A stretch of 64,000 nt of DNA from an uncultured delta proteobacterium (lineage in GTDB: Bacteria > Desulfobacterota > Syntrophia > Syntrophales > UBA5619): assembly GCA_963817385.1 (NCBI GenBank), contig CAWFOM010000009.1:13022-77021 (forward strand), given 5' to 3'. Positions 7,290 to 28,329 of the stretch are shown in pieces. Both the position numbers and the translations under genes were made by a program. Within the stretch, counting starts at the first letter, position 1. Every line of letters begins with the position of its first letter. The notes beneath the pieces were generated by a model. The model saw only the letters and a program-made list of their open reading frames with translations. It was not told the origin of the DNA and ran no database searches.

Positions 7290-8819
7290 TTGATCGTCAA
7301 GGCAATCAGCTCCGCCGTCATCGGCATCGATTCCCATCCCGTCGTGGTGGAGGTCGATCTCGCCGCCGGTCTTCCCCTTTTTTCGACCGTCGGCCTCCCC
7401 GACGTGGCGATCCGGGAGAGCAAGGACCGGATCAAGGCCGCCATCAAGAACTCCGGCTACGCATTCCCCGGCCATCATGTCACCGTCAATCTGGCCCCGG
7501 CCGACATCAAAAAGGAGGGCACCGCCTTTGACCTCCCCATCGCCGTAGCGATCCTGACCGCCCAGGGCCTCCTGCCCGCGGAGCCGCTCGCCGATTATCT
7601 CCTCCTGGGAGAACTCTCCCTGGACGGCGGCGTGAAGGGGATCCACGGCGCCCTGTCCGCGGCCTTCCAGGCAAAGTCCCTCGGCATCCGGGGGATGATC
7701 GTCCCTCGCGAGAACGCCGCCGAGGCGGCCCTCGTTGCGGAAATCGAGGTCATACCGGTGGATCGGCTCTCCGAGGTCGTGGAGTTTTTCGGCGGCAGGA
7801 CCCAGATCGCGCCGGTCAGGGTCGATATCGGTGCGCTCTTCCGGCGGAGCCTCGACTACCCCGTCGATTTCAATGAGATCAGCGGCCAGCAGCAGGCCAA
7901 GCGCGCCATGGAGGTCGCCGCCGCCGGAGGACACAACCTCCTGATGATCGGCCCCCCCGGCGCCGGAAAGACCATGCTTGCCCAGCGTCTCGTGACGATC
8001 CTTCCCGACCTTTCCCTGACGGAGGCCATCGAAACCACCAAGATCTTTTCCGTCGCCGGTCTCCTGGACCGGAAGGAGGCGATCCTGGGAACCCGCCCCT
8101 TCCGCGCCCCGCACCACACGATCTCCGACGCCGGCTTGGTCGGCGGCGGGCATACCCCCCGGCCGGGAGAAATCAGTCTTGCCCACCACGGCGTCCTCTT
8201 CCTTGATGAACTGCCGGAGTTCAGAAAGAACGCCCTCGAGGCGCTGCGCCAACCGCTCGAAGACGGACAGATCACGATCACCCGCTCTTCGGTGACGGCG
8301 ACCTATCCCGCCCGGTTCATGCTCGTCGCCGCGATGAATCCCTGCCCGTGCGGCTATTTCGGTGAAAGGAACCGCTCCTGCCGATGCACCCCTCAGCAGA
8401 TCCGTCAATACCAGGGGCGGATCTCCGGACCGCTCCTCGATAGGATCGACATCCATGTCGAGGTCCCCTCGGTCCGCTACCGCGACCTGACGGCGCGGGA
8501 GGCGGGTGAACCCTCCGCCGCGATCAAAGCCCGGATCGAGAAGGCCCGGGAGATCCAGAAACGGCGCTTCACCGCCGATGAAACCCGCTGCAACGCCCGC
8601 CTGTCGGACCGCCAGGTCCGGACCATCTGCCCGATCGACCAGGATTCCCGGCAACTCATCGAGATGGCCGTCGATCGGCTGGGCCTCTCCGCCCGCGCCC
8701 ACACCCGGATATTGAAGGTCGCCCGGACGATCGCGGACCTCGATGGTCACCCCGCGATCCGGGCTTCCCATGTCGCGGAAGCCATCCAGTACAGAAGCCT
8801 TGATCGCCGTCTCATTTAG
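7290..8819 (+). CDS. comM: YifB/ComM Mg-chelatase-like AAA+ ATPase
   Basis: VGLPD..RES, VNLAPADIKKEG, GPPGAGKT, PFRAPHHT, GVLFLDELPEF, AMNPCPCG and AEAIQYR motifs; TTG start at 7290. Confidence 0.95.
   Translation: MIVKAISSAVIGIDSHPVVVEVDLAAGLPLFSTVGLPDVAIRESKDRIKAAIKNSGYAFPGHHVTVNLAPADIKKEGTAFDLPIAVAILTAQGLLPAEPLADYLLLGELSLDGGVKGIHGALSAAFQAKSLGIRGMIVPRENAAEAALVAEIEVIPVDRLSEVVEFFGGRTQIAPVRVDIGALFRRSLDYPVDFNEISGQQQAKRAMEVAAAGGHNLLMIGPPGAGKTMLAQRLVTILPDLSLTEAIETTKIFSVAGLLDRKEAILGTRPFRAPHHTISDAGLVGGGHTPRPGEISLAHHGVLFLDELPEFRKNALEALRQPLEDGQITITRSSVTATYPARFMLVAAMNPCPCGYFGERNRSCRCTPQQIRQYQGRISGPLLDRIDIHVEVPSVRYRDLTAREAGEPSAAIKARIEKAREIQKRRFTADETRCNARLSDRQVRTICPIDQDSRQLIEMAVDRLGLSARAHTRILKVARTIADLDGHPAIRASHVAEAIQYRSLDRRLI
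8726..8818 (+). repeat. 93-bp direct repeat, left copy (comM 3' end; attL-like)
   Basis: Matches 28237-28329 apart from 2 synonymous substitutions. Confidence 0.95.
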
Positions 8820-8964
8820 AGTTAGCAAAAACAGATTTGAAGCCTGATATTCTGACCCGACTGCGTTTTCCCGGGATCATTTTTTTGGGGGGACTGGGAA
8901 TCTTTTTGGCTTATTTAGTCCCCCCACTCTCTCGTCCTTCCCCGAGCGCAGGGTTTGAATAACC

Positions 8965-9720
8965 TCACCCCCGTCCGATGAAGGGCATCTTGGTCGCCAT
9001 GATCGTCATGAACTGCACGTTGGCATCGATCGGCAGGCTCGCCATGTGCACGACGGCATCGGCGACATGCCGCACGTCTATCATCGGTTCGGGCGCCCTT
9101 TCGCCGTTTGCCTGCTTCACACCCGTGGCGATACCCGCCGACATTTCGGTCAGCGCATTGCCGACGTCGATCTGGCCGCAGGCAATGTCGTACTTCCTGC
9201 CGTCGAGCGAGATGCTCTTGGTCAGCCCGGTGACCCCGTGTTTGGTCGCGTTGTAGGGCGCGGAGTCCGGCCGCGGCACGTGGGCCGAAACCGACCCGGT
9301 GTTGATGATACGCCCACCGCGCGGCTCCTGGTTTTTCATCATCCGGAAGGCCTCCTGTGCGCAGAGGAACATGCCCGTAAGGTTCGTCTCCACCACCGAT
9401 TTCCACTGTTCATAGGTGAGATCCTCGAACAGGATTCCGGGTACATTGACGCCGGCGTTGTTGAACAACAGATCGACACGTCCGAACGCCTCTTTCGTTA
9501 TTTGAAAAAGCAGCCGTACCGACTCGGGATTGCTGACGTCGGTGGGGACGACCAGCACATGCGAGCCCACACCCGCTTCCGCCGCCGTTTTCTCCAAGAA
9601 TTCCGCACGGCGTCCGACCAGCACGACCAAATAGCCATCCTTCCACAGGGCAAGAGCCGTAGCCTTGCCGATACCCGTTCCCGCGCCGGTTACGACGGCA
9701 ACCTTCTGGAGTGAACCCAT
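8965..9720 (-). CDS. SDR family oxidoreductase
   Basis: [12 protein letters not shown] and YNATK motifs; ends in [10 protein letters not shown]. Confidence 0.92.
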
Positions 9721-9822
9721 TACCTTCCTCCTTGCAACTTTATTATTAACAATCCGTTCAACTACAGCGGGTCTTCCTCGCCTTGCGCGCCAACGGTTCC
9801 TGCGGATCGATCGGCCAACCGG

Positions 9823-10809
9823 TCAGGCAGCGATGTGACCGCCCAATTCATCCTCGATATGGATACGGATGATCTCGTCGAAGCTCGCCTCGGCTTTAAA
9901 GCCCAGCGAGATGGCGCGGCGAGCGTCGAAATTGCGCGGCCAGCCGGCAACTATCTTGATGATTTTCTCGTCTGGTTCCTCGCGGATAAGTCTGACCGCC
10001 TTATCGCCGGCGACGCGCCGTAACGCTTCGATCTCTTCGCCTACCGTTGCCGATAGTCCGGGAGCAGAGAGCGTCCGTCGCCAGCCCAAGACTTGCGTGT
10101 CGAGTCCCGCGGCATGCAGCAGAAAACCTGCCGCGGCGCGCGGGCTGGCAAACCAGTGCCGTATGTCGCGGCTAACCGGCAGCACCGCTTCCTGTCCGGA
10201 GAGCGGTTCGCGCAGGATGTTGGAGAAGAACCCCGAAGCCGCCAGATTCGGTTTACCCGGGCGGATAACGATGGTGGGCAACCTGATGCCGATGCCGTCC
10301 ACGAACCCCCGCCGCGAATAGTCGTTGAGGAGCAACTCCCCGATTGCCTTCTGCGTACCGTAGCTGGTCAACGGGGTGGCGAAGAACTCGTCGCCGATAG
10401 CTTCGGGGAACGGCGCACCGAACACCGCGACCGAAGAGGTATACACCAGCTTTGGGAAATAGGGTCGGTTGATGCCCTCCAACCGGATCGCTTCGAGCAG
10501 CAAGCGCGTGCCGTCAAGATTGATCCGGTAGCCCTTCTCGAAATCGGCCTCCGCCTCACCCGAAACGATGGCCGCCAGATGGAATATGAGATCGGGGCGC
10601 GAAGCAATGAGTGCCTGCGCCGCGCCGGGGGCGGATAGATCGGCGGGAATGGTCTCGACAGCGCCGGCATGGGGCATAGGTTCCGGCTTGATCACGTCAG
10701 TAAGTGTGAGTTTGACAATCTCTTTGCCGCCAACCTGGCCCGCCCTGACAAGGCCGGCGGTGAGCTTGCGGCCGACCATACCGGCGGCTCCGATAATCAG
10801 AATATGCAT
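9823..10809 (-). CDS. denD: D-erythronate dehydrogenase (extended SDR)
   Basis: MHILIIGAAGMVGRKL, HLAAIVSGEAEADFEKGYRIN, YGTQK and RPGKPNLAASGF are typical of DenD. Confidence 0.82.
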   Translation of the reverse strand: MHILIIGAAGMVGRKLTAGLVRAGQVGGKEIVKLTLTDVIKPEPMPHAGAVETIPADLSAPGAAQALIASRPDLIFHLAAIVSGEAEADFEKGYRINLDGTRLLLEAIRLEGINRPYFPKLVYTSSVAVFGAPFPEAIGDEFFATPLTSYGTQKAIGELLLNDYSRRGFVDGIGIRLPTIVIRPGKPNLAASGFFSNILREPLSGQEAVLPVSRDIRHWFASPRAAAGFLLHAAGLDTQVLGWRRTLSAPGLSATVGEEIEALRRVAGDKAVRLIREEPDEKIIKIVAGWPRNFDARRAISLGFKAEASFDEIIRIHIEDELGGHIAA

Positions 10810-10918
10810 ACAAAACCCTCCGTTGATAAATCATCTGCAAGTCTTCAGTAAAGTCTTCCGGATCACTATTATAATAATGTTCATCAGCCAGCCAAGCATG
10901 GTTATCGTACCAAATTGA

Positions 10919-11953
10919 TTATGGTGTAAGGATAACCTTCATTAACCCGTGTTCTTTATCATATAATCGTTTAAACCATGATGCTCCCTCAGAAAGTGGG
11001 GCGACAGCGCTAATTAAGGCATCAACATCTATTTTTTTACAAACGATCATATCCATGCAAGCCGGATATTCTCCATTTGATCCACACGATCCATACAGGG
11101 TAATTTCTCTTGTAACGACCGCCTGGAGGGGAAAATCAATTCTTGCACTTAAATTACCGACAAGCGTCAAGCTCCCCCCTTTTTTTACGGCGCCGATTCC
11201 CGTGTTGACGGCGGGAGAAATTCCCACCACTTCAAATGCACAATCGGCGCCTCTTTTGCTCGTTAATCTTAAAACCTCCTCTTCCACATTTACTCTCAGC
11301 GAGTTAAATCCAAAATCTGCACCCAATTTTTTGGCAACAGCAAGCTTTTCTTCGTCAATATCAACCGCAATGATCTTCCCGCAACCGGCGAGTCTCAACG
11401 ATTGAATCACCAACAGTCCGATCATTCCCGCGCCTACCACAACAGCCGTATCGTTTAAACGAATTGGAGTTCTTTTTACTGCATGAAAAGCGATTGAAAG
11501 GGCTTCGACCATTGCAGCCTGCTCGAAGGTAATTCCTTCAGGAAGTCTATAAAGAATATGCTGGGGGACAACGATATATTCTGCAAAAGCACCGTGCTGT
11601 CGGTACTCTTTGCAGGAAACGCCGGCAACACGTCGATTATCGCAGAGATTAATCTGACCAAGTCGGCAGAAATGGCACTCCCCGCAATAAATTGTGGAAT
11701 CAAATGTTACCTTGTCTCCTTTTACCCATTGGGTCACATTATTTCCAACTTCCGCAATAGTTCCTGAAGCTTCGTGTCCCATGACAATAGGAGGAATTCT
11801 TCTCCCGGTGCTCCCATCCATACCATGAACATCACTACCGCATATTCCACATGCTTTCACGCGTATGAGAACTTCATCATCACGTTTGATTACTGGTCTA
11901 TCCATGTCGATATATTCAAATTTATTGTATTCTTGTAATATAAGGGCTTTCAT
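10919..11953 (-). CDS. Zn-dependent polyol/sugar dehydrogenase (galactitol-1-phosphate/sorbitol dehydrogenase-like)
   Basis: GICGSD, GHE, structural Zn CGECHFC..C and GAGMIG motifs; AT-rich gene. Confidence 0.9.
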   Translation of the reverse strand: MKALILQEYNKFEYIDMDRPVIKRDDEVLIRVKACGICGSDVHGMDGSTGRRIPPIVMGHEASGTIAEVGNNVTQWVKGDKVTFDSTIYCGECHFCRLGQINLCDNRRVAGVSCKEYRQHGAFAEYIVVPQHILYRLPEGITFEQAAMVEALSIAFHAVKRTPIRLNDTAVVVGAGMIGLLVIQSLRLAGCGKIIAVDIDEEKLAVAKKLGADFGFNSLRVNVEEEVLRLTSKRGADCAFEVVGISPAVNTGIGAVKKGGSLTLVGNLSARIDFPLQAVVTREITLYGSCGSNGEYPACMDMIVCKKIDVDALISAVAPLSEGASWFKRLYDKEHGLMKVILTP

Positions 11954-12186: not shown

Positions 12187-12247
12187 CATTACGCTAAAGT
12201 GCGGCTTCTTGTCAATCCAATTCACTTAACAGGAAAGGAGGAACGTG

Positions 12248-13597
12248 ATGAAGGGCCATCCGAAGAAGGGAAAGGAAAGGGTTAAGTTAAGTCGGCGTGA
12301 TTTTCTCAAGGCAGGAGCGGCCGGCTTGGGTGTAGCTGCCATGGGAGGGCTGCTGCCCGACATGCTCCTCGCCGCCAAGGCGCCGGCGTTCAAGAAAGGG
12401 ACAAAACTCTCCATCCTGCAGGGCTCTTATTTCATCGCGCCTTCGCAGGACCTGTACAAGAGGCAGGCTCAGGAGTGGGGCGAGGCGAACGGCGTTGAGA
12501 TGGCTTGCGACTTCCTGAACTGGCCGGACCTGCAGCCCAAGATTGCGGCCTCCGTCCAGGCCGGCGGTTACGACATCGTCGAACTATGGGGCGGCTGGAA
12601 CTATCTCTATCAAGACAACCTTGTAGAGGTAAGCGATATTGCCGAGGCTTTCGGAAAGAGAAACGGCGGGTGGGAAAGATTTGTTGAGCTCTCTTACAAG
12701 GTTGGAAACCGCTGTCTGGGAGTTCCCCATGGTTACTCCAATGGTTCCATGGCCTACCGGATCAGTTGGTTCAAGGAAGCCGGATGCCCGAACGCCGAGG
12801 ATGGGAACAAAATTGATTTGACCTGGGACGAGTACTTCGCCATCGGCAAGAAGTGTAAAGCAAACGGGCACCCATTCGGGCAGGCACTCGGCCACAGCAC
12901 CGGGGATCCTCCGGGATATTGCTATCCGTATATGTGGTCCTACGGGGCCATGGAAGTGGAAAAGGACGGCAAGACCATAGCCTTCAATAAGCCCCAGTTT
13001 GTAGAAGGAATGCGGAAGTTCATCGAGGGCTGGAAGGACGCCTATGATGAAACCGGGACCTCCTGGGACGACAGCAACAACAACCGCGCATATCTTTCCG
13101 GCCAGATCTCCAGCACCTTCAACGGCTCCAGCATCTATTTTGCCGCAAAGAAGGATAAACCGGAGATCGCCGCAGACACGCACCACATACTCATTCCCAA
13201 AGGACCGGCCGGCCGGTTCTACTGGCTGGATACCCGGACATTCGCCATCCTGAAGAACTCGAAAAATATACCGGCAGCCAAAGCGTTCTTGAAGTGGTGG
13301 TTCGAAGAAAAACAGTTCGGCGACTGGTGGCGCAGCCAGAAAGGGTATATGCTTCAGCCGGTGAAAAAGTATTACACCGATCCTGTCTGGTTCGAAGATC
13401 CGAAAATGGCCCCCTTCCGGGAACAGCCCAAGTACGGGTTAAACCAGGGCTATGCCGGCCCGCCGAATAGAAAAGCAGCCGAGGCGTGGTCAAAGTATAT
13501 CGTAGTGGACACTTTTGCTAAGGCCGTCCAGGGCGGGGATGCCAAACAGGCGATTGAATGGGGCGCGGACCAGTTGAAACGGATATATGGCAGGTAA
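12248..13597 (+). CDS. Carbohydrate ABC transporter substrate-binding protein with Tat signal
   Basis: SRRDFLK twin-arginine motif; CUT1-type binding-protein sequence; AGGAGG RBS. Confidence 0.9.
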   Translation: MKGHPKKGKERVKLSRRDFLKAGAAGLGVAAMGGLLPDMLLAAKAPAFKKGTKLSILQGSYFIAPSQDLYKRQAQEWGEANGVEMACDFLNWPDLQPKIAASVQAGGYDIVELWGGWNYLYQDNLVEVSDIAEAFGKRNGGWERFVELSYKVGNRCLGVPHGYSNGSMAYRISWFKEAGCPNAEDGNKIDLTWDEYFAIGKKCKANGHPFGQALGHSTGDPPGYCYPYMWSYGAMEVEKDGKTIAFNKPQFVEGMRKFIEGWKDAYDETGTSWDDSNNNRAYLSGQISSTFNGSSIYFAAKKDKPEIAADTHHILIPKGPAGRFYWLDTRTFAILKNSKNIPAAKAFLKWWFEEKQFGDWWRSQKGYMLQPVKKYYTDPVWFEDPKMAPFREQPKYGLNQGYAGPPNRKAAEAWSKYIVVDTFAKAVQGGDAKQAIEWGADQLKRIYGR

Positions 13598-13611
13598 TTC
13601 CCAGTGAGATG

Positions 13612-13649
13612 GGGGGTGGATTGAAAACCAATCCATCCCCCTATTTTTT
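13612..13649 (+). terminator. Stem-loop plus U-tract after the SBP gene (terminator or mRNA stabiliser)
   Basis: GGGGGTGGATTG-AAAAC-CAATCCATCCCC followed by CTATTTTTT. Confidence 0.65.
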
Positions 13650-13671
13650 GAATATTCTGAGCATATCTCCT

Positions 13672-14580
13672 ATGGTCAATGGTTCTCGATTAAAATCCTT
13701 TTCCATGAGGGACTTTTTTGACAGGGAGAGGAATCTCGGCATCATTCTCATGTTACCGGGGGCCATCCTCCTGATTGCTTTCATGGCCTATCCTTTTTTT
13801 ATCGGCATCTGGCTCTCCCTGACGGACAGCATGATCGGACGAGCAGGGCAATTTATCGGCCTCAGGAATTTTACGGATCTGCTGACCGACACCATCTTTC
13901 ACCAAACCGCCCGAAATACCTTCATCTATGCTCTGGTAACCGTCCCCTTTAAGGCCATGCTCGGCTTGGGGCTGGCTTTGGTCCTGAACCGGCATATGCG
14001 GTTCAGCAGCCCGATCCGCGCCGCCGTGATGATGCCCTGGATCGTTCCCACCGCGCTCAGTTCTCTGGGTTGGTTCATGATCTTCGATCCGGTCTTCAGT
14101 CCGATCAGCTGGCTCTTTAAACATATGGGTTTAATCAGCAAGAACATCAATTTCCTGGGAGATCCCATTTTGGCGATTTCCTCGGTTTGCTGGGCAAATA
14201 TCTGGCGCGGAGTCCCCTTTTTCGGAATCACCATTCTGGCCGGGCTGCAGTCGGTTCCCCAGGAGCTGCATGAGGCCGCGGCGATTGACGGGGCCTCAGT
14301 CTGGCATCGGTTCCGTCATGTGACCATCCCTTCGATCAAAGGAGTGGTCCTGATTGCCTCTCTCCTGTCCATTATCTGGACCTTTGCGGATTTCCAGCTC
14401 ATCTATATTTTGACCAAAGGAGGACCGGCAAACCAGACCCATATTTTTGGAACCTATACGTACCAAATTGGCTTGTCGGCAACGGAAATCGGCATGGGCG
14501 CGGCCATTTCCCTGTACATGTTCCCCATCCTCGCCGTCTTCGCCATTCTGCTTCTCATTTATCTACGGAGGGAACAATAA
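13672..14580 (+). CDS. Carbohydrate ABC transporter permease (MalF/UgpA-like)
   Basis: Multiple TM helices; EAA loop ELHEAAAIDGA; LTKGGP motif. Confidence 0.93.
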   Translation: MVNGSRLKSFSMRDFFDRERNLGIILMLPGAILLIAFMAYPFFIGIWLSLTDSMIGRAGQFIGLRNFTDLLTDTIFHQTARNTFIYALVTVPFKAMLGLGLALVLNRHMRFSSPIRAAVMMPWIVPTALSSLGWFMIFDPVFSPISWLFKHMGLISKNINFLGDPILAISSVCWANIWRGVPFFGITILAGLQSVPQELHEAAAIDGASVWHRFRHVTIPSIKGVVLIASLLSIIWTFADFQLIYILTKGGPANQTHIFGTYTYQIGLSATEIGMGAAISLYMFPILAVFAILLLIYLRREQ

Positions 14581-14581
14581 A

Positions 14582-15427
14582 ATGGTTGGGAGCAACGTCT
14601 TTCGTGCCAAGTTTTTCAGCCTCTATCTGCCCCTGGCGTTATATTTGCTCGTCCTCCTCTTTCCCTTTTATTGGATGTTGATCGTTTCTTTCAAGCCCAC
14701 GAACGACCTTTTCGAAATGAAATTCAATCCGTTCTGGATCCAGCAATTCACCCTGGAAAATTATTTGTATCTTTTCCAGAATACCGATTTTCTAACCTGG
14801 CTGAAAAACACCCTTATTGTCTCCGTCGTTTCTACGGCCTTATCGCTGATATGCAGCATCTTCATCGGTTACGCCTTGGCCCGGCTGCGTTTTCCCGGGA
14901 GCAATTTTTTGGGGCTGGGAATCTTTCTGGCTTATCTGGTCCCCCCCACTCTCCTCTTCCTTCCCCTGGCGCAGGTTATTAACGGATTCGGTCTGAACAA
15001 CACCTACTGGGCGCTTATTCTTACTTATCCAACCCAGTTGATTCCTTTTGCCTCCTGGCTCTTGATGGGTTATTTTCGAACGATCCCGAAGGAAATCGAG
15101 GAAAGCGCGATGGCCGACGGCTGCTCGCGCATCCAGATCCTCGTGCGCATGGTCCTGCCCCTCTCCGTTCCAGGCCTCCTTTCGGCCGGGATTTTTTGTT
15201 TCACGCTGTGCTGGAATGAATTTCTCTATGCCCTTATCTTCATGTCTTCCGGCTCCATGAAAACCGTCTCCGTGGGAACGGTCAGCGATCTGATCAAGGC
15301 CGACACCCTGTTCTGGGGTGCGCTTATGGCCTCCGCGGTTTTAGGGTCCTTTCCGATAGCTTTCATATATTCATTTTTCGTGAAGCATTACGTCTCCGGC
15401 CTCACGGCCGGGGCCGTGAAAGGGTAG
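14582..15427 (+). CDS. Carbohydrate ABC transporter permease (MalG/UgpE-like)
   Basis: EIEESAMADG and WNEFLYA motifs; ends GLTAGAVKG. Confidence 0.93.
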   Translation: MVGSNVFRAKFFSLYLPLALYLLVLLFPFYWMLIVSFKPTNDLFEMKFNPFWIQQFTLENYLYLFQNTDFLTWLKNTLIVSVVSTALSLICSIFIGYALARLRFPGSNFLGLGIFLAYLVPPTLLFLPLAQVINGFGLNNTYWALILTYPTQLIPFASWLLMGYFRTIPKEIEESAMADGCSRIQILVRMVLPLSVPGLLSAGIFCFTLCWNEFLYALIFMSSGSMKTVSVGTVSDLIKADTLFWGALMASAVLGSFPIAFIYSFFVKHYVSGLTAGAVKG

Positions 15428-15431
15428 TTTA

Positions 15432-16229: not shown

Positions 16230-16280
16230 ATCATTTCATATATAAGCCGGATTTCCCGGCGTTCGTGAAGGAGAGTCACC

Positions 16281-18496: not shown

Positions 18497-18543
18497 CATC
18501 ATCACCTCAAATTGGGTTCGTTCAATCAATGTCTTGACCGGGG

Positions 18544-18573
18544 ACGATACGGAAAGGCGTTTTGCGTGTCAAG
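18544..18573 (-). promoter_or_regulatory. Conserved promoter, copy 2
   Basis: Minus strand reads CTTGACA-CGCAAAACGCCTTTCCG-TATCGT. Confidence 0.7.
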
Positions 18574-18665
18574 GAGAATTGCCCGGTTACGGCCGGTTTT
18601 CCTTTCCCGCCTTCGCGCCCAGTCTGCATGACGGAATGCCGTGGAAAAACACGAAATCAGACCGG

Positions 18666-19325: not shown

Positions 19326-20332
19326 GACTTTCTCCATTGCGGCAGGAAGGGTGAAAAGGCCGGTGCGTCCAGCAGTTTCTTGAATTCATCATCGAGACGA
19401 AGCAAACTCAATGAGGCTCCCGCCATCTCCATGGAGGTCGCGTATTCTCCCACAAAGGTCCTATAAACCTTTATTCCCTGGGCTTTCAGGATATCATGGA
19501 CCCTGCTGGAGAGGATAAACAACTCCTCCGGAGGGGTAGCGCCCAGTCCATTCATCAACATGGCCGCTTCATCGCCTGATTTGAAGGGCAGGTCATTGAT
19601 GACCCTCTCAGCCATAATTGCAGCCACTTCATCCGCTTTCTTCAATTTGGTCCTTTCGATTCCCGGTTCGCCGTGAATTCCCATGCCTATTTCCATCTCA
19701 TCTTCGGCAATAGTAAAATTCGGCTTACCCACAGCGGGAATCGTGCAGGGGCTCAATGCCACTCCCATTGTACAGGTATTGGCGATGGCCCGGTCGGTCG
19801 TAGCCTTGACCTCATCGAGGGTGGCCATCGTATCAGCCTTCGCCCCGGCAATTTTATAGGCGAAGAATATACCGGCAATACCGCGGCGACGCTCTTTCTG
19901 TGAAACGGGTGCCGAGGCGACGTCATCCGCCGCCACGCTTGATTTAACGGGGATATCATCCATAGACGCCATTTCGGCTGCCATCTCGAAATTCATCGTA
20001 TCGCCGCTGTAGTTTCCGAAAAGATAAAAGACGCCTGCCCCGCCGTTAACCTCTCTGGTGACGGCCAGCATAGCATCGGCGCTCGGTGAAGCAAAAACAT
20101 TGCCGATTGAGACCCCGTCCAGCAGTCCCGGACCTACATACCCTAAAAACACCGGAATGTGTCCCGAACCACCGCCGGTGCAAATGGCCACTTTTCCCTC
20201 GACCGGCGCGTCGGCCCGCACCAGACCGCGCGGGCTTTCCTTTGACAGGCGCAGGTGGAAAGGATAGGCTTTGAGAATTCCGGATATCGTCTCATCGACA
20301 AATTGAAGAGGATCATTAATCAACTTCTTCAT
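19322..20332 (-). CDS. dhaK: Dihydroxyacetone kinase-family subunit K (Dak1)
   Basis: MKKLIND, GGGSGH, VFASPS, NYSGD, GMGIHGEPG and TSMEMAG motifs. Confidence 0.92.
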   Translation of the reverse strand: MKKLINDPLQFVDETISGILKAYPFHLRLSKESPRGLVRADAPVEGKVAICTGGGSGHIPVFLGYVGPGLLDGVSIGNVFASPSADAMLAVTREVNGGAGVFYLFGNYSGDTMNFEMAAEMASMDDIPVKSSVAADDVASAPVSQKERRRGIAGIFFAYKIAGAKADTMATLDEVKATTDRAIANTCTMGVALSPCTIPAVGKPNFTIAEDEMEIGMGIHGEPGIERTKLKKADEVAAIMAERVINDLPFKSGDEAAMLMNGLGATPPEELFILSSRVHDILKAQGIKVYRTFVGEYATSMEMAGASLSLLRLDDEFKKLLDAPAFSPFLPQWRKS

Positions 20333-20563: not shown

Positions 20564-22234
20564 ATGTTCTGGCGAAGCAAAGACATTCTTCAGTTTCCCG
20601 AGGGGGCCATGGTTCGCGGACTTTACAAATCCATGGGGTACAGCGACTATGACCTGTCCCGCCCTATGATCGGGATCGCCAATTCGTGGAACCGGGTGGT
20701 CCCGGGGCATTACAACCTGAACCTGGTTTCGGAGTACGTGAAGCAGGGAATCTTCCAGGCCGGGGGGACGCCGGTCGAATTCGGAACGATTGCCGCCTGC
20801 GACGGGATCTCCCAGGGCCACGACGGGGGGCGTTACATCCTGCCCAGCCGCGACCTCATCGCCAATGACATCGAAACGATGATCGAAGCCCACCGTCTGG
20901 ACGGGGTGGTGCTCCTGGGGTCTTGCGACAAGATCGTCCCCGGCATGCTCATGGCCGCGGCACGCATGGACCTTCCCGCCATCCTGGTGGCGGGGGGCCC
21001 TATGGAAGGGGGCTGCGAGTTCGACGGCCGGGCGGCGGATATCACGGCCCTCACGGAAGCGATGGGAATGCTGACAACGGGAAAGATGACCGAAGAAGAA
21101 TACCGCCATTTGGAAAATTGCGCCGGACCGGGCTGCGGCTCTTGTTCCTTCTTCGGGACGGCCAATACCATGTGTTGTCTTGCCGAGGCTCTGGGGCTGA
21201 GCCTTCCGGGGAGCGCGACCATCCCCGCCACGCGAGCCGACCGTCTGCGGGCCGCCCAGGAATCGGGGAGACAGGTCGTGCGCATGATCATGGAAGGGAT
21301 TACGGCCCGGCGGATCATCAACAAAAAAAGCATCGAAAACACGATTCGCCTCAACGCCGCCGTGGGCGGTTCGACCAACGCCATCCTCCACCTTCTGGCG
21401 ATCGCCTATGAAGCGGACGTGGACCTCAATGTGGACAAGTTTGAAGAGCTGAGCCGAACGACCCCCTTGATCGCCAAGATCTTCCCGGCGGCGGCGGAGA
21501 ATGTGCCCGATTTCCATTTTGCCGGGGGTGTGCCGGCGGTGATGAAGGAAATTCTCCCCTTGCTGCATAAGGAAGCTCTCAGTGTGAACGGAAAAACAGT
21601 TGTCGAGAATGTGGCCGATGCCAAAATCATGAACCCCAAAATGATCAAGACCCTGGCCCAACCATGGGCCGCGGAGGGAGGTCTGGCAGTCCTGAGGGGG
21701 AATCTGGCGCCCAACAGCTGCATCACCAAGCCTGCCGCCATCCGGCCTGAAATCCACAAATTCACGGGCAAGGCGCACTGCTTCGATTCGGAGGAGGCGG
21801 CGAACCAGGCCATCCTGGACCGCAAGGTGGTCGAAGGGGAGGTCGTGGTCATTCGCTACGAGGGACCGAAGGGCGGGCCCGGGATGCGGGAGATGTACAC
21901 AGCCATGAAGCTTTTGTTCGGTCAGGACCTGGCTCTCAAAACCGCCCTGGTGACCGATGGGAGGTTTTCGGGGACGAACAACGGATGTTTCGTCGGCCAC
22001 ATTTCCCCCGAAGCCGCCGAGGGAGGCCCTCTGGCCATCGTCCGGGACGGGGATCCAATCACCATCGATATCCCCGCCAGGAAGCTGCACCTCCATGTCT
22101 CCGACGAGGAGATCAAGACCCGTCTGGCCAAATGGAAGCGGCCGGAGCCCAAGTTTAAAAAAGGGTACCTGGCCCTTTACTCGCGCCTGGCTGAGTCGGC
22201 TGATAAAGGCGCGATCATTCGGAACAAATTCTAA
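20564..22234 (+). CDS. ilvD: IlvD/Edd-family dihydroxy-acid dehydratase (possibly a sugar-acid dehydratase)
   Basis: ACDGI, SCDKIVPG, GCGSCS..GTANTM, GGSTN, YEGPKGGPGMREM and TDGRFSG motifs. Confidence 0.9.
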   Translation: MFWRSKDILQFPEGAMVRGLYKSMGYSDYDLSRPMIGIANSWNRVVPGHYNLNLVSEYVKQGIFQAGGTPVEFGTIAACDGISQGHDGGRYILPSRDLIANDIETMIEAHRLDGVVLLGSCDKIVPGMLMAAARMDLPAILVAGGPMEGGCEFDGRAADITALTEAMGMLTTGKMTEEEYRHLENCAGPGCGSCSFFGTANTMCCLAEALGLSLPGSATIPATRADRLRAAQESGRQVVRMIMEGITARRIINKKSIENTIRLNAAVGGSTNAILHLLAIAYEADVDLNVDKFEELSRTTPLIAKIFPAAAENVPDFHFAGGVPAVMKEILPLLHKEALSVNGKTVVENVADAKIMNPKMIKTLAQPWAAEGGLAVLRGNLAPNSCITKPAAIRPEIHKFTGKAHCFDSEEAANQAILDRKVVEGEVVVIRYEGPKGGPGMREMYTAMKLLFGQDLALKTALVTDGRFSGTNNGCFVGHISPEAAEGGPLAIVRDGDPITIDIPARKLHLHVSDEEIKTRLAKWKRPEPKFKKGYLALYSRLAESADKGAIIRNKF

Positions 22235-22257
22235 AAGGAAGGGAGGCCAACCGACCC

Positions 22258-22935
22258 TCATCTTGCCGGAAACGATTCTCGGAGCCGGTGGACATCGGAC
22301 ATATGACGGACATGATAGGTCTTCATGCCGGTTGCCCTGGCAGGGGTCAGATCAATTCCCTCTTCATCACCGATAGCGAGACACTTTTCAGGGAGCACGT
22401 CGAGCAGGCGGGCCATGGTAGAACATAGGACCCGGTCCGGTTTGGTTCTCCCCGTCTCGGACACCGTAAGGATCGCTTGGAAAAAAGGACCGACACCAAG
22501 GATCTCCAAAATACGGTCGGTGTGGACCCGATGGTTATTGGTGAGCAGTCCAAGTCGATAACGACTCGAGAGGATCGAGATGGTTGTCACGAGTTCCGGA
22601 TCCTGCCGGAGGAAGCTTCCGGGATCGATTGTGCGGATAGTCTTATTTCGCCATACTTCCCAAACAATGCCTAACTCACGCAATATCAAAGTGTTGCTTG
22701 GGGTATAACCGCATCGCGCTGCAAGGACCGTCCGAGTTCGGTTATAGAGCTCCTTTGTCTCGAGATGATCAATTCCTTTAACTTCAGCTATGAGGTTGCA
22801 GGCGGCCTGCCGATAAGCTCCTTTGAACTCCGGGCTTGTATAGAGGGTGTCGTCCATGTCGAAAATCAACGCCTGGATGTCCTTCCATTCGTCTTGATTG
22901 AAAGGGGATGTTGTGACTTCAGCGTTCGACATCAT
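22258..22935 (-). CDS. HAD-family phosphatase
   Basis: IFDMDDTLY, LLTN, KP and IGDEEGID motifs. Confidence 0.85.
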   Translation of the reverse strand: MMSNAEVTTSPFNQDEWKDIQALIFDMDDTLYTSPEFKGAYRQAACNLIAEVKGIDHLETKELYNRTRTVLAARCGYTPSNTLILRELGIVWEVWRNKTIRTIDPGSFLRQDPELVTTISILSSRYRLGLLTNNHRVHTDRILEILGVGPFFQAILTVSETGRTKPDRVLCSTMARLLDVLPEKCLAIGDEEGIDLTPARATGMKTYHVRHMSDVHRLRESFPAR

Positions 22936-23037
22936 CGGTGCCCTGTTGACGCCCCGCTGCGCCCACCCTGTTCTTTATCGGTCATGTACGGCCGAGCAGG
23001 CTCGGTGGCGGTGCACTGCAAAGGGGCAATATGGAAA

Positions 23038-23817
23038 TTAGACGGAGCTGGTAAGGCCGCCATCAACATAGATGATTTGCCCGTTTACAAATGTCGAAGC
23101 CTTTGACGCAAGAAACACGGCGGTACCGCACAGTTCGTCGACATTTCCCCATCGTCCGGCAGGAGTTCTCTTGCATAACCAATCGGAAAATTCCTTGTTC
23201 TCGACAAGAGCCTTGTTCATTTCCGTCGCAAAATAACCCGGTGCAATGCCATTGATTTGGATGCCGTATTTCGCCCATTCCACGCACATGCCCTTGGTCA
23301 ACATCGCCACTCCCCCTTTCGTCGCAGCATAAGGAGCGACGGTGGAACGACCGAGCTGGCTTAGAACCGAACAAATGTTGATGATCTTACCTGTCATTCG
23401 CGGGATCATATATTTTGCGACAGCCTGAGAAACATGAAATACACTGCTCAGATTGGTATTGATCAGTCTTTCCCATGCATCTGCGGGAAAATTTTCCAGG
23501 GGTGCACGATACTGAATGCCTGCATTATTAACCAGAATATCAATAACTCCGATTTCGGACTCAATTTTACGAATTGATGATACGACAGCGTCACGCTCTG
23601 TTGCGTCAAATATGGACGTCGCTATGGTAAACCCCTCTTTCCTCAATTCTCCGGCCGCGCGTGCTAATTTTTCCCGATCGCGGCCATTCAGCACGATTGC
23701 CGCTCCGGCTTCAGCGAGTCCCTTTGCCAGAGCCAAGCCAATTCCCTGGCTTGATCCGGTAATTAATGCACGCGACCCGGTAAGATCAAAAGGATTCTTT
23801 CTATCAGATTTATTCAT
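23038..23817 (-). CDS. idnO: Gluconate 5-dehydrogenase
   Basis: FDLTGSRALITGSSQGIG, YAATKG, RTPAGRWG and VNGQIIYVDGG motifs; adjacent to idnD. Confidence 0.85.
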   Translation of the reverse strand: MNKSDRKNPFDLTGSRALITGSSQGIGLALAKGLAEAGAAIVLNGRDREKLARAAGELRKEGFTIATSIFDATERDAVVSSIRKIESEIGVIDILVNNAGIQYRAPLENFPADAWERLINTNLSSVFHVSQAVAKYMIPRMTGKIINICSVLSQLGRSTVAPYAATKGGVAMLTKGMCVEWAKYGIQINGIAPGYFATEMNKALVENKEFSDWLCKRTPAGRWGNVDELCGTAVFLASKASTFVNGQIIYVDGGLTSSV

Positions 23818-23859
23818 TGTTCCTCCAGGCGGGGATATCAGCCGTTCAGGGAAAAGATC

Positions 23860-24906
23860 CTAAAAAGACAGTTGCACCTTCATTTGCGCTTTCCGATCGC
23901 TTGCAAGATGAAAAGCTTCGACAGCTCTTTCGAAGGGAAGAGTTGCGGTTATAATCGGTTTTACATCAATCTTTCCTTCGCGGATCAGACGCACAGCGAA
24001 AGGAAATTCTGAATTACAGCGGTGCGTACCAACCAACGCAATCTCTTTACCCACCAGCCCATTAATTGGGACAGAGACATCTCCCGTCACCGTCAAACCC
24101 ACCTGAACAATAGTCCCGCGTGGCTTTACGACAGGAATGACACCACGCAATACCGACGAAGCGCCCGTACATTCGAAGGCCACGTCAAAATAACCCTTAT
24201 CCGAAAGAAACTCCTTTTTTTCAAGTCCCGGCTCAATCGAAACGTTCACGACTCGCGTCGCTCCCATCTCCATAGCCTTCTTTAATGCCGCATCATGAAG
24301 ATCGGCAGCAACCACTTCAGCCGCACCCGCGTAACGGGCCACGGCAATAACAAGAGCGCCAATCGGACCAGAACCGTTTACGAGGATCTTTTTACCCATT
24401 AACGTCCCGGCCTGGTTTACCGCATGCAGCGATACGGCAAGAGGTTCGGCACACGCAGCCTCTCCAAACGAAACCGAATCGCCGACCGACTCGCAACGGA
24501 ACTCCTCAGTGATCAGCCGTTCCCGAAACGCCCCGTGACTATGGGGCACGCGCATGGCACTTCCGTAAAACCACACATCCAGACAATGTTGTTGTTGGCC
24601 TAATTGGCAGAAAGTACAACGGCCGCATGGGAGACTCGGATTGAGAGCGATGTGATCTCCGACATTAACCTTTGTAACTTTAGGACCGACCGCTTCAACC
24701 GTTCCGGATACTTCATGACCGAGTATCATCGGCTCCTTTATTCTCACCGTTCCAAACCCGCCATCGAGATAGTAGTGGCGATCGGAGCCGCAAATTCCTC
24801 CTGCAAGAACACGGACCAAAACCTGCGTTTCTCCCAGTGCACCAAGCGGAACCTTCTCGATTCGCAGATCCAGTTTATCGTGAATGACACAAGCCAAACT
24901 CTCCAC
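23860..24906 (-). CDS. idnD: L-idonate 5-dehydrogenase
   Basis: GGICGSD.HYY..GGFG, FYGSAMRVPH..G and DKGYFDVAFECTG motifs; ends KVQLSF. Confidence 0.85.
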   Translation of the reverse strand: MESLACVIHDKLDLRIEKVPLGALGETQVLVRVLAGGICGSDRHYYLDGGFGTVRIKEPMILGHEVSGTVEAVGPKVTKVNVGDHIALNPSLPCGRCTFCQLGQQQHCLDVWFYGSAMRVPHSHGAFRERLITEEFRCESVGDSVSFGEAACAEPLAVSLHAVNQAGTLMGKKILVNGSGPIGALVIAVARYAGAAEVVAADLHDAALKKAMEMGATRVVNVSIEPGLEKKEFLSDKGYFDVAFECTGASSVLRGVIPVVKPRGTIVQVGLTVTGDVSVPINGLVGKEIALVGTHRCNSEFPFAVRLIREGKIDVKPIITATLPFERAVEAFHLASDRKAQMKVQLSF

Positions 24907-25069
24907 TACATCCTCCGAATCGTCATTGATATGAGCGCAGCATTACCGTCAATCCGATCAGGACGAGGCAATGGGCGGATGAAGCAACCTCTTTTGCACC
25001 GAAATTGCTATTTGTCCGGGCAACAGAAGTAGAGATTCGGAACAACCGGCAATTCTGCCGCAACCTGGA

Positions 25070-25822
25070 TCACCATGCCGTCGCGCCACCGTCCACCGGA
25101 AAGGCCACCCCGTTGATGAACGCCGCCTCGTCCGAAGCCAGGTAAAGCGCGGCGCTGGCCACATCCTCCATACTGGCGAGACGGCCCAGAGGCACCTCAC
25201 CCACGCGCTCCTGCCTGCGATCGAGATCCTTCATCATCTCTTGAACCAGAGGGGTCTCCACCGTACTGGGGCAGAGCACATTGGCCCGGATGTTGTCTTT
25301 GGCATAGCGGACGGCCACTGACCGGGTCAGCTGGGAAATTGCACCCTTTGTCAAGGTGTAGGCTTCGGGGGTAAACTTGTGGCCGATGAGGCTGCAGACC
25401 GAACCCATGCTGATGATGGAACCACCGCCGTTTTTACGCATCAGGGGCAGGGTGTGCTTGATGCCGAGAAACGGCCCTCGGACATTCACGGCCAGCATCC
25501 TGTCAAGGCTCTCAACGCTCATCTCCTCGATGAGCTGGCGGATGTTGATTCCGGCGTTGTTCACCAGGGTGTCGAGCTTTCCCGCCTTGTCGATCAGCGC
25601 GGCCAGCGCGGCCGTCCAACTCTCCTCGTCGGCCACGTCCAGGCGGACAAACCAGGCCTGGGCGCCCTTCGAGGTAAGTTCGGCCGCGGCGGCCCGGCCC
25701 TGATCCTCCTTGATGTCGCCGAGAAAAACCAGGGCGCCCTCCAGGCTGAACCGGCGGGCGATGGCCAGTCCCAGACCCTGAGAAGCGCCGGTGACGAGGG
25801 CAACTTTGTTTTTGAGACGCAT
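25070..25822 (-). CDS. SDR family oxidoreductase
   Basis: TGASQGLG, NNAG, YTLTKG and VDGG motifs. Confidence 0.92.
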   Translation of the reverse strand: MRLKNKVALVTGASQGLGLAIARRFSLEGALVFLGDIKEDQGRAAAAELTSKGAQAWFVRLDVADEESWTAALAALIDKAGKLDTLVNNAGINIRQLIEEMSVESLDRMLAVNVRGPFLGIKHTLPLMRKNGGGSIISMGSVCSLIGHKFTPEAYTLTKGAISQLTRSVAVRYAKDNIRANVLCPSTVETPLVQEMMKDLDRRQERVGEVPLGRLASMEDVASAALYLASDEAAFINGVAFPVDGGATAW

Positions 25823-25993: not shown

Positions 25994-26212
25994 TCATCCA
26001 GGAGCGACTTGCCGAGGAGGAAAATGTGCGGGCCGGTCGCCGGTTCGGGTTGTGCCGGGAGCAGTCGGCCCCGCCTCAGCCTTGACGCGCACGATTTCGG
26101 AGGGAAGTTTGCTACCTGGAGACCAGGTGCGGCGAAGAATCTGATCACGGAGCTGCCAGAAAACCTGGCCGCGGACGCTCTCTTCTTTGATGGGTTTGAG
26201 CATGGTTACCAT
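25994..26212 (-). pseudogene. Truncated GntR/FadR-family regulator
   Basis: MLKPIKEESVRGQVFWQLRDQILRRTWSPGSKLPSE matches the start of a GntR winged helix. Similarity stops abruptly before the recognition helix. Confidence 0.75.
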
Positions 26213-26500
26213 CCAAGGTCATAGCCCAAATTGTCATTGCCCAAATCAGAGGTTGTCCGATATCCTACACCTGATCACTTGTCAAGAATTTTTCAATGAG
26301 ATCCGTTGATAGGAACTGGAAGGCTGAACGATCAAACAATGGTAATCCTTAATGTAGTGGTTCTGAAGAAAATGTGGTAGGGTTGAAAGAAATGGAGACC
26401 AATGTTTAGGTACCAGTTGCCTCATTGAAAAATGTTGCCGAAGGAGTTGAGTTGGAAGGTAAATAACTAGGACTTCCATTTTGTTCGATAAGGATTGAAG

Positions 26501-27871
26501 ATGAATGATTTGTTGATGGCCTTTTATGGCGATGATTTTACCGGTTCGGCAGACGCGATGGAGGCACTGACTTTAAATGGCGTGCCGACTGTGTTGTTTC
26601 TTGACCGGCCTGATCCCGCTTTACTGAAAAGACGATTGAAAAACGTTCGGGCCGTGGGCGTAGCCGGAACCAGCCGAACCATGACGCCATCGCAAATGGA
26701 CGAGGAATTACCCGGGCAGTTTCAGATGCTCAAAGATCTGGGAGTCCCTCTTATCCATTACAAAGTATGCGCGACTTTTGACTCGTCAGCCAGGATCGGC
26801 AGCATCGGGCATGCGGCTGACCTCGCATTTAGCGTGATCAAACCACCATTCGGGGTCATTGTCCAAGGCGTTCCGATTATCGGACGCTATGTAGTATTCG
26901 GTAATCATTTCACTACGGTAGGGAATAAAACCTACCGCCTTGATCGTCACCCGATGATGAGCAGACATCCTATTACCCCTATGGACGAAGGAGACCTGAG
27001 ATTACATTTTGCCAAACAAACGGGGAAAAAAGTTGAACTGATTGATCTGCTGCAGCTAAGCAAACCATTTGATTCAATCTCCCGTCAATTTGACCAGTAC
27101 ATCGACCAAGGAAATGAAATTATCCTTTTTGACACCCTGGAAGAAATAAATCTTCTCAAGATTGGCCAGCTAATAAATAAAAAAATCGGCTCTCAACCGA
27201 TTTTTGCCATTGGTTCTTCAGGATTTGAGTATGCGATGGCACTCTATTGGCAATCTGCAGGCATTGTTTCAAAACCGAATCCGATTCCTCCGGCAGGACC
27301 AGTGGATCAGCTAATCGTAGTAAGCGGCAGTGCGGCAGACAAGACTGCCGAACAAATCAAATACGCCATGGATCACGGCATTGAGGGTATTCGACTGAAC
27401 ACTGATCTGCTCATTGATCATGAAACCGTCAAAGACGAACGGAATCGCGTGATTCAACACTCACTAAAATTTCTTCGCCAAGGGAAAAGCATTATCCTCT
27501 TCTCTACCGTTGGACCAGATGATCCGTACATCAAAAAAACCAAAGATACGATGAAATCTTTGGGTATTGATGTAAATGAAGTCGGGAAACATCTTGGAAA
27601 ACAACAAGGATTAATACTACGTGAATTGGTAGAAATAGCAGGACTGAAAAGAGTGTGCGTTGCAGGAGGAGACACCTGCAGTTATGTATTGCGCCAAATG
27701 GATATAAATTCGCTGGAGCTGTTGATGCCGATTACCCCAGCGGCTCCGCTATGCCGTGCGTTCTCCGATAATCCCACATTTGAAGGCCTCCAGGTTGCTT
27801 CAAAAGGCGGACAAATAGGTGCACCTGAATATTTTATTCAAGTCCTAAACGGACAAAGAGCGAATCTCTGA
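26501..27871 (+). CDS. Four-carbon acid sugar kinase family (DUF1537), resembling 3-oxo-isoapionate kinase OiaK
   Basis: AFYGDDFTGSADAMEAL, HYKVCATFDSS, YRLDRHP.MSRHP.TPMDE, VAGGDT and KGGQIG motifs. Confidence 0.85.
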   Translation: MNDLLMAFYGDDFTGSADAMEALTLNGVPTVLFLDRPDPALLKRRLKNVRAVGVAGTSRTMTPSQMDEELPGQFQMLKDLGVPLIHYKVCATFDSSARIGSIGHAADLAFSVIKPPFGVIVQGVPIIGRYVVFGNHFTTVGNKTYRLDRHPMMSRHPITPMDEGDLRLHFAKQTGKKVELIDLLQLSKPFDSISRQFDQYIDQGNEIILFDTLEEINLLKIGQLINKKIGSQPIFAIGSSGFEYAMALYWQSAGIVSKPNPIPPAGPVDQLIVVSGSAADKTAEQIKYAMDHGIEGIRLNTDLLIDHETVKDERNRVIQHSLKFLRQGKSIILFSTVGPDDPYIKKTKDTMKSLGIDVNEVGKHLGKQQGLILRELVEIAGLKRVCVAGGDTCSYVLRQMDINSLELLMPITPAAPLCRAFSDNPTFEGLQVASKGGQIGAPEYFIQVLNGQRANL

Positions 27872-28236
27872 CGCACTAAACCTGAATCCGCGATTCCATC
27901 CGGAGGATCTTATGCCGGAATATCGCCTCCAGTTTTTCAACTCCGAGGGAGGCGCTGCCCGGAACATGCCTTTGCCGTAGAAATATCCGTCAGTGATCAG
28001 AATAGGAAATTCTATAGAGTCGAGCAGCGGGCGACGCAGCGAAGGGAAAGTTCCTTCGCCCGATGACAGCTCACGAAGTGGTTCGGGGCAATCCATTCCT
28101 GCACCGGCGTCATTTCCCGGCAGACGGCCTCCGCATAACTGCATCGGGGATGGAAATAACAGCCAGGCCGGAGTATGAGGGAAGGGGGGCTTGTATGTCA
28201 AGAAAAATTGGCCCCAACATATGGGTGCTAAGCGGA

Positions 28237-28329
28237 GACGATCGCGGACCTCGATGGTCACCCCGCGATCCGGGCTTCCCATGTCGCGGAAGCCATCCAA
28301 TACAGAAGCCTTGATCGCCGCCTCATTTA
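28237..28329 (+). repeat. 93-bp direct repeat, right copy (displaced comM 3' end; attR-like)
   Basis: Encodes TIADLDGHPAIRASHVAEAIQYRSLDRRLI*, the same as the comM C-terminus, with CAA/CGC/TAA in place of CAG/CGT/TAG. Confidence 0.95.

Follow-up and report, generated by a model that had tools for sequence, protein, structure and literature searches.

A recombinase-less catabolic island between direct repeats of the comM 3′ end in an uncultured Syntrophales bacterium

Introduction

Cis-mobilizable elements (CIMEs) are islands that have lost their integration and transfer genes and retained attL and attR, and the source also describes tandem accretion at the sites used by integrative and conjugative elements (ICEs) as well as by integrative and mobilizable elements (IMEs) (PMC5704250). 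Here we analyzed a stretch of 64,000 nucleotides (the window: positions 13,022 to 77,021 of contig CAWFOM010000009.1, assembly GCA_963817385.1) from an uncultured member of the Syntrophales, in which an island of catabolic and transport genes lies between comM (yifB) and ilvE and is bounded by two copies of the comM 3′ end. The interval was truly inserted, and fairly recently; both flanking genes remain intact, no recombinase is encoded in cis, deletion scars lie near the right end, and the same architecture recurs at this site in other Syntrophales. Judged from its architecture, it would be a recombinase-less island of a known kind, bounded by att-type repeats in the textbook arrangement of an att-repeat fossil.

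Like the CIMEs related to ICESt1/ICESt3 at the fda 3′ end of Streptococcus thermophilus, as that account presents them, the island appears to keep repeats of a gene 3′ end, here putative att sites, without integration or transfer genes. It differs in that the repeats measure 44-477 nt across the order rather than forming a fixed att core, that its tails are of the host's own lineage, and that its att sites are putative. Tandem arrays in three other genomes (G214, G053 and G212; genomes are numbered with G, their contigs with C and loci with L) would fit accretion. The Dehalococcoides ssrA islands are arranged in tandem at a 20-bp ssrA repeat and use a large serine recombinase as integrase; 15 of them are without an integration module, in 16 the integrase gene adjoins attL, and the fixed 20-bp repeat is flanked by a conserved motif (McMurdie et al. 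2011, PMC3146451). The likeness extends to repeats of the 3′ end of a single-copy gene, downstream of which the islands lie, to niche catabolic or respiratory cargo in an anaerobe of the uncultured type, to the lack of an integration module in about half of the islands, and to the class of the integrase, a large serine recombinase as in an element of G038 described below (PMC3146451). Here, by contrast, a protein gene, comM, is the target, long repeats of variable length take the place of a fixed one, and no recombinase was found in any of the eight tail-bounded arrays examined.

The gene comM is itself a known target. In Acinetobacter, large accessory islands of the Tn7-like AbaR/Tn6022 type lie inside comM and inactivate it (PMC11014353, PMC11441513). 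In the window, comM is intact, transposition genes are absent and the duplication comprises 93 nt of the gene end, which sets the island apart from AbaR/Tn6022. Transposons of that type have Tns/TniQ proteins, terminal inverted repeats and a short target duplication. The Acinetobacter islands thus destroy comM, whereas the inserts at the comM-ilvE junction of Syntrophales preserve it; islands that sit at the comM/yifB 3′ end and spare the gene were not described in the literature searched. The insertion explains how an uncultured, sediment-type Syntrophales lineage gained a complete set of importer and catabolic genes and lost neither comM nor ilvE. With a known architecture and a cargo drawn from the gene pool of the family, the island is less surprising than first thought; the main interest lies in recurrence across the order, in which the comM-ilvE junction is a repeated gene-preserving insertion site in several families, and in the tail-delimited, recombinase-less cassettes as a natural system for studying how CIMEs persist and move.

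Insertion between comM and ilvE

The source genome (G000) is a draft of 31 contigs and 3.95 Mb, 81.6% complete, and the window belongs to its contig G000:C9 of about 130 kb. A direct repeat of 93 nt (8726-8818 and 28237-28329, start-to-start spacing 19,511) is identical at 91 of 93 positions, and exactly two copies occur in the draft (E values of 1e-42 and 5e-40, far beyond chance). Both mismatches are synonymous in the comM frame (CAG/CAA for Gln and CGT/CGC for Arg), the first 62 nt are identical, and the stop codon is TAG in the left copy (8817-8819) and TAA in the right one (28328-28330). The island boundary corresponds to nt 1479 of the comM open reading frame (ORF), codon ~493; the right copy ends 56 nt ahead of ilvE, and no inverted repeat was found at the island ends. 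The features at the two junctions are as follows.

7248..8819, + strand: comM (yifB), intact, with Pfam ChlI, Mg_chelatase and Mg_chelatase_C, to residue 523 of which relatives align; the coordinates are those of the longest ORF, the true start being probably slightly downstream
8726..8819, + strand: left comM-tail copy, the 93-nt repeat plus the final base of the TAG stop, which completes comM
28237..28330, + strand: right comM-tail copy, the 93-nt repeat plus the final base of the TAA stop, which keeps the native position as a remnant without function
28331..29462, + strand: native comM-ilvE spacer (TGATAAAG...AAGGAG) and intact ilvE (28386-29462)

Forty relatives were searched with ComM and IlvE, 14 junctions were read base by base, and G010 was rechecked by DNA. 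The two genes are 45-231 bp apart in 29 of the 40, an adjacency that extends to other Syntrophales families, and named comM matches are Smithella, Smithellaceae and Syntrophales metagenome-assembled genomes at 65-68%. Inserts of 1-7 kb occupy the junction in five relatives (G005, G015, G028, G030 and G031). In G038, comM is split by ~31 kb and its 3′ piece lies beside ilvE; the junction of G018 is truncated, the genes of G037 are on separate contigs, G007 and G036 were uninformative, and G012 gave no match. A tail repeat was not detected in the inserts of G005 (L011, a DHDPS-family gene), G028 and G030 (L020 and L021, PdxS) or G015 (L012, a 7.1-kb block with a DUF255 thioredoxin-like protein).

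Comparison with these genomes separates native from inserted DNA. The right copy, the spacer and ilvE are colinear with the relatives aligned across the spacer (the alignments of G009 and G008 stop within it and that of G020 at the ilvE start codon), and homology of the left copy to the comM-ilvE region of relatives stops at the comM stop, 8819. The contig of G010 is syntenic with that of the window on either side of its empty site. Metagenome contigs were also scanned for the lineage-specific tail: an exact 27-mer scan gave no match, and a degenerate pattern found one contig, L137, which is 95.5% identical over comM and carries moaC-comM-ilvE without an insert. Identity to L137 is ~95% immediately on both sides of the junction. 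The insertion is thus younger than the split from the L137 lineage. In composition, the interval has a GC content of 0.44-0.55 over most of its length, against 0.60-0.64 in the flanks, and is mosaic per kb (0.44-0.61). Among the sequencing runs searched, none contains more than 0.20 of the words sampled from the stretch, and contigs from four runs over 8500-28450 are short pieces from related organisms that neither bridge a junction nor skip the island and that speak neither for nor against a circle or an empty site in the source sample.

These observations bear out much of the initial annotation, which had reported the recurrence of the comM tail 19,511 bp downstream, before ilvE, with synonymous differences, and had proposed an insertion at the comM 3′ end that kept the gene whole; comM is full length, and the empty junction by which this proposal could be checked is found in 29 of the 40 relatives and in L137.

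Lineage of the two comM tails

L137 has the base of the right copy at each of the two positions that distinguish the copies, and the L137 stop, TAG, is that of the left copy; at one further site both tails read GGTC and L137 reads GGCC. The native spacer, together with the match to L137 at both variable sites, identifies the right copy as the displaced native tail. That the ilvE-proximal copy, and not the one completing comM, matches L137 and is followed by the native spacer is as expected if the left tail came with the insert. The left copy may have been imported from a donor within the species-level clade, or it may be a duplicate that has diverged; three differences in 96 nt are insufficient to decide between the two.

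Both tails share bases that are absent from all 14 same-family genomes aligned; these genomes are ~78-86% identical over the comM 3′ end, and the two tails are 98% identical to each other. In sliding identity, comM is nearest to G010 along its entire length, with no breakpoint. Any imported tail would therefore have come from the same species-level clade. A foreign replacement tail in the window is ruled out by the sliding-identity profile and the tail alignment, and the earlier proposal of an element carrying its own comM tail is accordingly not supported in so far as that tail would be foreign.

Cargo of the island

All 17 ORFs of the island match metabolic or transport families (Pfam, NCBIfam). 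They include three short-chain dehydrogenases/reductases (SDRs), two Zn-dependent dehydrogenases, one epimerase and one 2-hydroxyacid dehydrogenase. From left to right, the island contains the following.

8820..8964, no strand: left non-coding end of the insert, including a hairpin element (8853-8952)
8965..11953, - strand: SDR (8965-9720), NAD-dependent epimerase/dehydratase (9823-10809) and Zn-dependent alcohol dehydrogenase (10919-11953), from Pfam and NCBIfam
12245..17375, + strand: ABC sugar importer operon with a solute-binding protein bearing a twin-arginine (TAT) signal, two permeases, an HpcH/HpaI-type aldolase and a MalK-type ATPase, from Pfam
17513..20332, - strand: 2-hydroxyacid (glyoxylate/hydroxypyruvate-type) dehydrogenase, DhaL (Dak2) and DhaK (Dak1), from Pfam and NCBIfam
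20564..22234, + strand: IlvD/Edd-family dehydratase, above the NCBIfam cut-off for dihydroxy-acid dehydratase
22258..25822, - strand: HAD phosphatase, SDR, Zn-dependent dehydrogenase and SDR
26495..27871, + strand: DUF1537-family acid-sugar kinase
28012..28166, - strand: C-terminal relic of an Opp/Dpp-type ABC ATPase, recognized by translation and tblastx as a truncated pseudogene
28172..28209, - strand: orphan, decayed copy of the shared island promoter motif, pointing into the ATPase relic

Three divergent operon promoters of one design (CTTGACAyACAAG..CCTTTCCGTATCGTC) are predicted; promoter-like sites lie at 12158-12186 ahead of the importer operon and at 18572-18544 and 20459-20431 for the 17513-20332 block. 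With this common design, the genes look like a single catabolic unit under joint control. Its substrates would be sugars (short or branched), polyols or the corresponding acids, and the exact compound is a prediction from gene families. For the Zn-dependent dehydrogenase of the 22258-25822 block the nearest family is L-idonate 5-dehydrogenase, below the cut-off, and for the kinase it is 3-oxo-isoapionate kinase, with a score of 470 bits where the cut-off is 700. The ATPase relic, some 50 C-terminal residues within the 365 nt before the right tail, aligns by tblastx to four paralogous loci of G000 (46-51% identity, best segment each, over 35-41 aa) and has no Pfam match as a longer ORF. This relic and the orphan promoter are deletion scars, and loss, not accretion, is what is visible in situ. 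No tRNA or tmRNA lies in the window, and no Rfam match reaches the gathering score in 7000-30000.

Searches of the island DNA against 339 Syntrophales genomes gave matches of 83-98% identity in same-genus and same-family genomes, on contigs other than the one with comM-ilvE. The importer operon, the epimerase and the 2-hydroxyacid dehydrogenase are found on G010:C58, where the importer DNA is 91% identical across 5.2 kb; DNA homologous to 8965-11953 occurs on G306:C109 and G010:C58 (89-92% identity). An SDR and the kinase are held by G010:C98 and G012:C113, and the kinase homologue of G306:C109 likewise lies beside an SDR. Almost the whole cluster is present in G306 (C109 and C341), in the same order, at ~90% identity and away from comM, with two extra genes and one Zn-dehydrogenase fewer; there, the left-end SDR runs directly into the right-end kinase. 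The near-whole cluster at another locus indicates that the cluster pre-existed and moved. Over 920 nt of the 2-hydroxyacid dehydrogenase/DhaL/DhaK block, G306:C341 is 98% identical to the island, whereas comM is only ~82% identical, which points to recent exchange within the family. The island probably arrived largely pre-assembled, to judge from these matches, and its role as a landing pad for catabolic modules, suggested by the initial annotation, finds no support: the modules reside at other loci, G306 holds nearly all of them together, and only deletion is seen in situ.

Local rearrangement from a nearby site was considered and rejected, as the comM neighbourhood of G010 is syntenic and empty, and the polyol module of that genome has different flanks, on a separate contig. 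Contig breaks obscure the ancestral location of the polyol module, and the insertion site in G306 is too fragmented to define. As separate observations, the hairpin element (~100 nt, GGGGGGACT...AGTCCCCCC) has only two copies in the genome, at 8853-8952 and at 14877-14975, the latter between the two permease genes and conserved in G010:C58; and the IlvD-type dihydroxy-acid dehydratase gene of the island lies a few kb from ilvE.

Tail-bounded arrays in other Syntrophales

Scanning the 339 genomes for the codons of AIQYRSLD (a 24-nt motif, at most one mismatch) gave matches in 305 and two or more matches in 22. Coordinates were resolved for 18 of these 22 (G287, G027 and G328 were left out): in eight (G000, G031, G051, G053, G212, G214, G226 and G311) at least two tails lie on one contig and strand, and in ten (G002, G040, G274, G299, G332, G336, G049, G089, G108 and G178) the matches are on different contigs. 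G011 has a lone comM fragment on C361. In the closed genome G031, of another family, a 1.2-kb insert stands between 50-nt repeats of 90% identity; it contains a patatin-like ORF of 183 aa that looks truncated.

The longest series is that of G214, which reads moaC-comM-[5.7 kb]-tail-[4.3 kb]-tail-[4.4 kb]-tail-ilvE-lolA and thus has four tails and three cassettes. Tails measured from the stop are 44, 49, 63, 94, 113, 114, 458 and 477 nt long and 76-98% identical to the resident tail, and every array retains at least 44 nt of tail ahead of ilvE. In G214, G212, G226 and G053, the tail completing comM ends in TGA followed by a conserved foreign arm (GCGTCATAYCATGATTGCAAA), and the ilvE-proximal tail keeps the native spacer, which indicates that the functional tail of those genomes was brought by the insert. 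The 114-nt tail of G214, with an XRE-gene remnant ahead of it, equals the 477-nt tail of the G053 type with an internal deletion; short tails can thus be cut-down long ones, and their 5′ ends need not mark the crossover.

AbiE toxin-antitoxin modules adjoin tails in G311, G212, G214 and G053, with AbiEii genes in G311 and G212. G214 and G053, which belong to different families, share a 2.7-kb AbiEi/AbiEii cassette at 95.9% identity, against 75% for their ComM proteins. A unit of transfer made up of a cassette and a single tail was considered and rejected, since this shared AbiE DNA is not tail-bounded on both sides. The cassettes of G214 (G214:C11:124500-143500, L023) carry PAS/histidine-kinase genes, AbiEi/AbiEii with a hydrolase, and a DEAD-box helicase with an AAA/STAND-like ATPase; in that assembly, both ilvE and lolA come out as split ORFs. 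On G053:C1 (L028, 265000-284500, and L029, 307500-313000), comM and ilvE are ~43 kb apart in opposite orientation with tails facing both ways, an arrangement that suggests inversion between tail copies.

A gene-splitting element in comM

That comM is a target of mobile elements, as the initial annotation stated, holds for Syntrophales too. In G038 (C6, 498500-533500; L030 and L031), an ICE-like element of ~31 kb with a GC content of 0.30-0.49 splits comM at codon ~362-369. A large serine recombinase of 499 aa (L031:13958-15457) abuts the comM 5′ fragment, and the element also carries a type IV secretion system coupling protein, a second Resolvase-like ORF (L031:8331-9083), a HEPN protein and XRE regulators, one XRE helix-turn-helix gene being head-to-head with the comM 3′ fragment. 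Relatives of this XRE gene adjoin long comM 3′ fragments in G212, G051, G053 and G011:C361. Three comM fragments in G306 begin at nt ~1089 (C255:6497-6974, C334:2585-3028 and C135:22380-22520), and with a lone fragment in G010 (C70:26528-26668) all start at nt ~1088-1102; a DNA query found no 5′ part of comM in G306. This point may be the attachment site of a family of serine-recombinase elements. The element of G038 and the island of the window share the order and the target gene, but the former splits comM, unrestored, at about codon 362-369 (nt ~1089), and the latter lies at about codon 493. The G038 type is a second, gene-splitting class of comM element, distinct from the 3′-end duplication of the window.

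Mechanism and alternative explanations

We favour, with confidence evenly balanced against doubt, the interpretation of the island as a fossil, CIME-like, left by site-specific integration at the comM tail. In this scheme, a DNA circle that bore the comM 3′ end in copy would have recombined with the chromosomal comM tail in a Campbell-type insertion-duplication; the incoming tail would complete comM, and the native tail, with its spacer, would be displaced to a dead remnant before ilvE. The recombination and transfer genes would then have been deleted, or always have been supplied in trans, and the island would persist as fixed cargo; the acting enzyme may since have been lost, may have come in trans, or may be RecA. 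We infer three of these steps: that the intermediate was circular, that a site-specific recombinase once took part, and that this enzyme was lost later. Site-specific integration is supported by the rarity of the repeat, the empty site in relatives and in L137, the match of the ilvE-proximal tail to L137, the lower GC content, the horizontal mobility of the cargo, the scars at the right end, the tail-bounded arrays in eight of 339 genomes of the order, the foreign arm after the comM-completing tails of G214, G212, G226 and G053, the AbiE modules beside tails, the trimmed tail of G214, the presence of a recombinase-bearing ICE (that of G038) in the order, and the precedents set by CIMEs and the Dehalococcoides ssrA islands.

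The search for a recombinase agrees with the initial annotation, which had reported no integrase. PF00589 (tyrosine integrase) has no match on contig C9, neither the recombinase nor the XRE gene of G038 has a homologue in the window (the former by tblastn), and no remnant of an ICE or IME gene was recognized in the island. The non-coding gaps (8820-8964, 11954-12244, 25823-26494 and 27872-28236), searched with blastn and tblastx against the genome, yielded only the hairpin copy and the ATPase relic. A functional ICE or IME with comM-tail specificity was found neither in this genome nor in the arrays examined.

Several results weigh against site-specific integration. None of the 17 island ORFs belongs to a recombinase or transposase family, with no remnant of any kind, and PF00239 and PF07508 have no match in the 81.6%-complete genome, so that no trans-acting candidate is in sight. 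The arrays repeat this picture: PF00589 is absent between the tails of G214, G212, G226, G051 and G053, the G038 recombinase gave no tblastn match in L023-L029, none of 20 array ORFs scanned is a recombinase, and PF07508 is absent from four of five array-bearing genomes (G214, G212, G053 and the closed G031) and occurs in G226 only on another contig. The tail lengths are not fixed, unlike those of a single attP/attB system, no conserved motif lies just upstream of right-hand tails across the order, and the arm conserved in families f8 and f19 is absent from the window. To these are added the incompletely tail-bounded AbiE cassette of G214 and G053, the own-lineage bases of both tails, the unbroken comM profile, and the position of the G038 recombinase site at codon ~362-369, away from the comM 3′ end.

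A possible but clearly less probable explanation is that homology alone sufficed: a circle from a clade-mate that carried a comM tail, perhaps formed by RecA loop-out between direct repeats in a donor strain, would have entered by one RecA crossover in ~94 bp, or the whole tail-island-tail block would have been copied from a conspecific by double crossover in comM and ilvE. The close kinship of the two tails, the absence of a breakpoint in comM and the even identity to L137 on both flanks speak for it, as do a recombinase absent in cis and not found in the genome, variable tail lengths, unconserved right-hand boundaries and a cargo from the family's own gene pool. However, it leaves the origin of the first tail-carrying circle unexplained, and 94 bp is a poor substrate for RecA. 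The comM-completing tails of f8 and f19, with their conserved foreign arm and different stop codon, and the two tails of G212, 76% identical, indicate element-borne tails rather than own-genome homology, and the addiction modules beside tails suggest true mobile elements.

A broader and more doubtful proposal would make the comM 3′ end a cassette-capture site of the Syntrophales, with integron-like, tail-delimited arrays of several genes and no recombinase in cis. It would be driven either by RecA, with the unusually well conserved tail as substrate, or by a trans-acting recombinase that has escaped recognition; its cassettes would be catabolic clusters, AbiE and other defence or signalling modules, and the island of the window would be one such cassette.

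The island might have arisen in situ, by small local duplication of the comM tail or by an illegitimate insertion that duplicated a long target; modules would then have been added step by step, and the remnant kept for signals needed in ilvE expression. We regard this as improbable. It would account for the GC mosaic of the interval, for the unrelated inserts without a tail repeat at the same junction (G005, G028, G030 and G015), and for the tail kept before ilvE in every array, the last ~40 nt of comM being unusually conserved at the DNA level across the order; but G306 has nearly the whole cluster elsewhere at ~90% identity, the operons share one promoter design, and no intermediate stages were seen. 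Nor did a simple sigma-70-like scan find an ilvE promoter on the + strand of the retained tail, which is weak evidence, as promoters of the host may differ.

Least probable is an assembly ambiguity in which an empty site and a separate circle (island plus one tail) were threaded through the 62 identical bases: a 31-contig draft and the joining of ilvE to the tail variant of the empty-site relative L137 would allow it, but a repeat with two ways in and two out normally breaks assemblies rather than being threaded twice within a 130-kb contig, analogous integrated structures exist in the closed, single-contig G031 and in seven other assemblies, and the ilvE-proximal stop has changed to TAA, as expected of a copy that no longer terminates a gene.

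Other repeats of the genome

Two further repeats were observed in G000. A dispersed repeat of ~117 nt (74-92% identity), which looks like a repetitive extragenic palindromic (REP) sequence or a miniature inverted-repeat transposable element (MITE), occurs at 50089-50206 of the window (G000:C9:63110-63227) and in ~40 other places of the genome, and in G306 a copy (C341, 2488-2603) sits just upstream of the island homologue. In addition, a 4-kb region with a sigma-54-activator-like gene is present in two copies of 97.5% identity, at G000:C9:2-4013, upstream of the window, and in the last 4 kb of G000:C11. Both copies are at contig ends and may represent a true duplication or strain heterogeneity in the draft; the counterpart of this region in G010 adjoins the polyol module.

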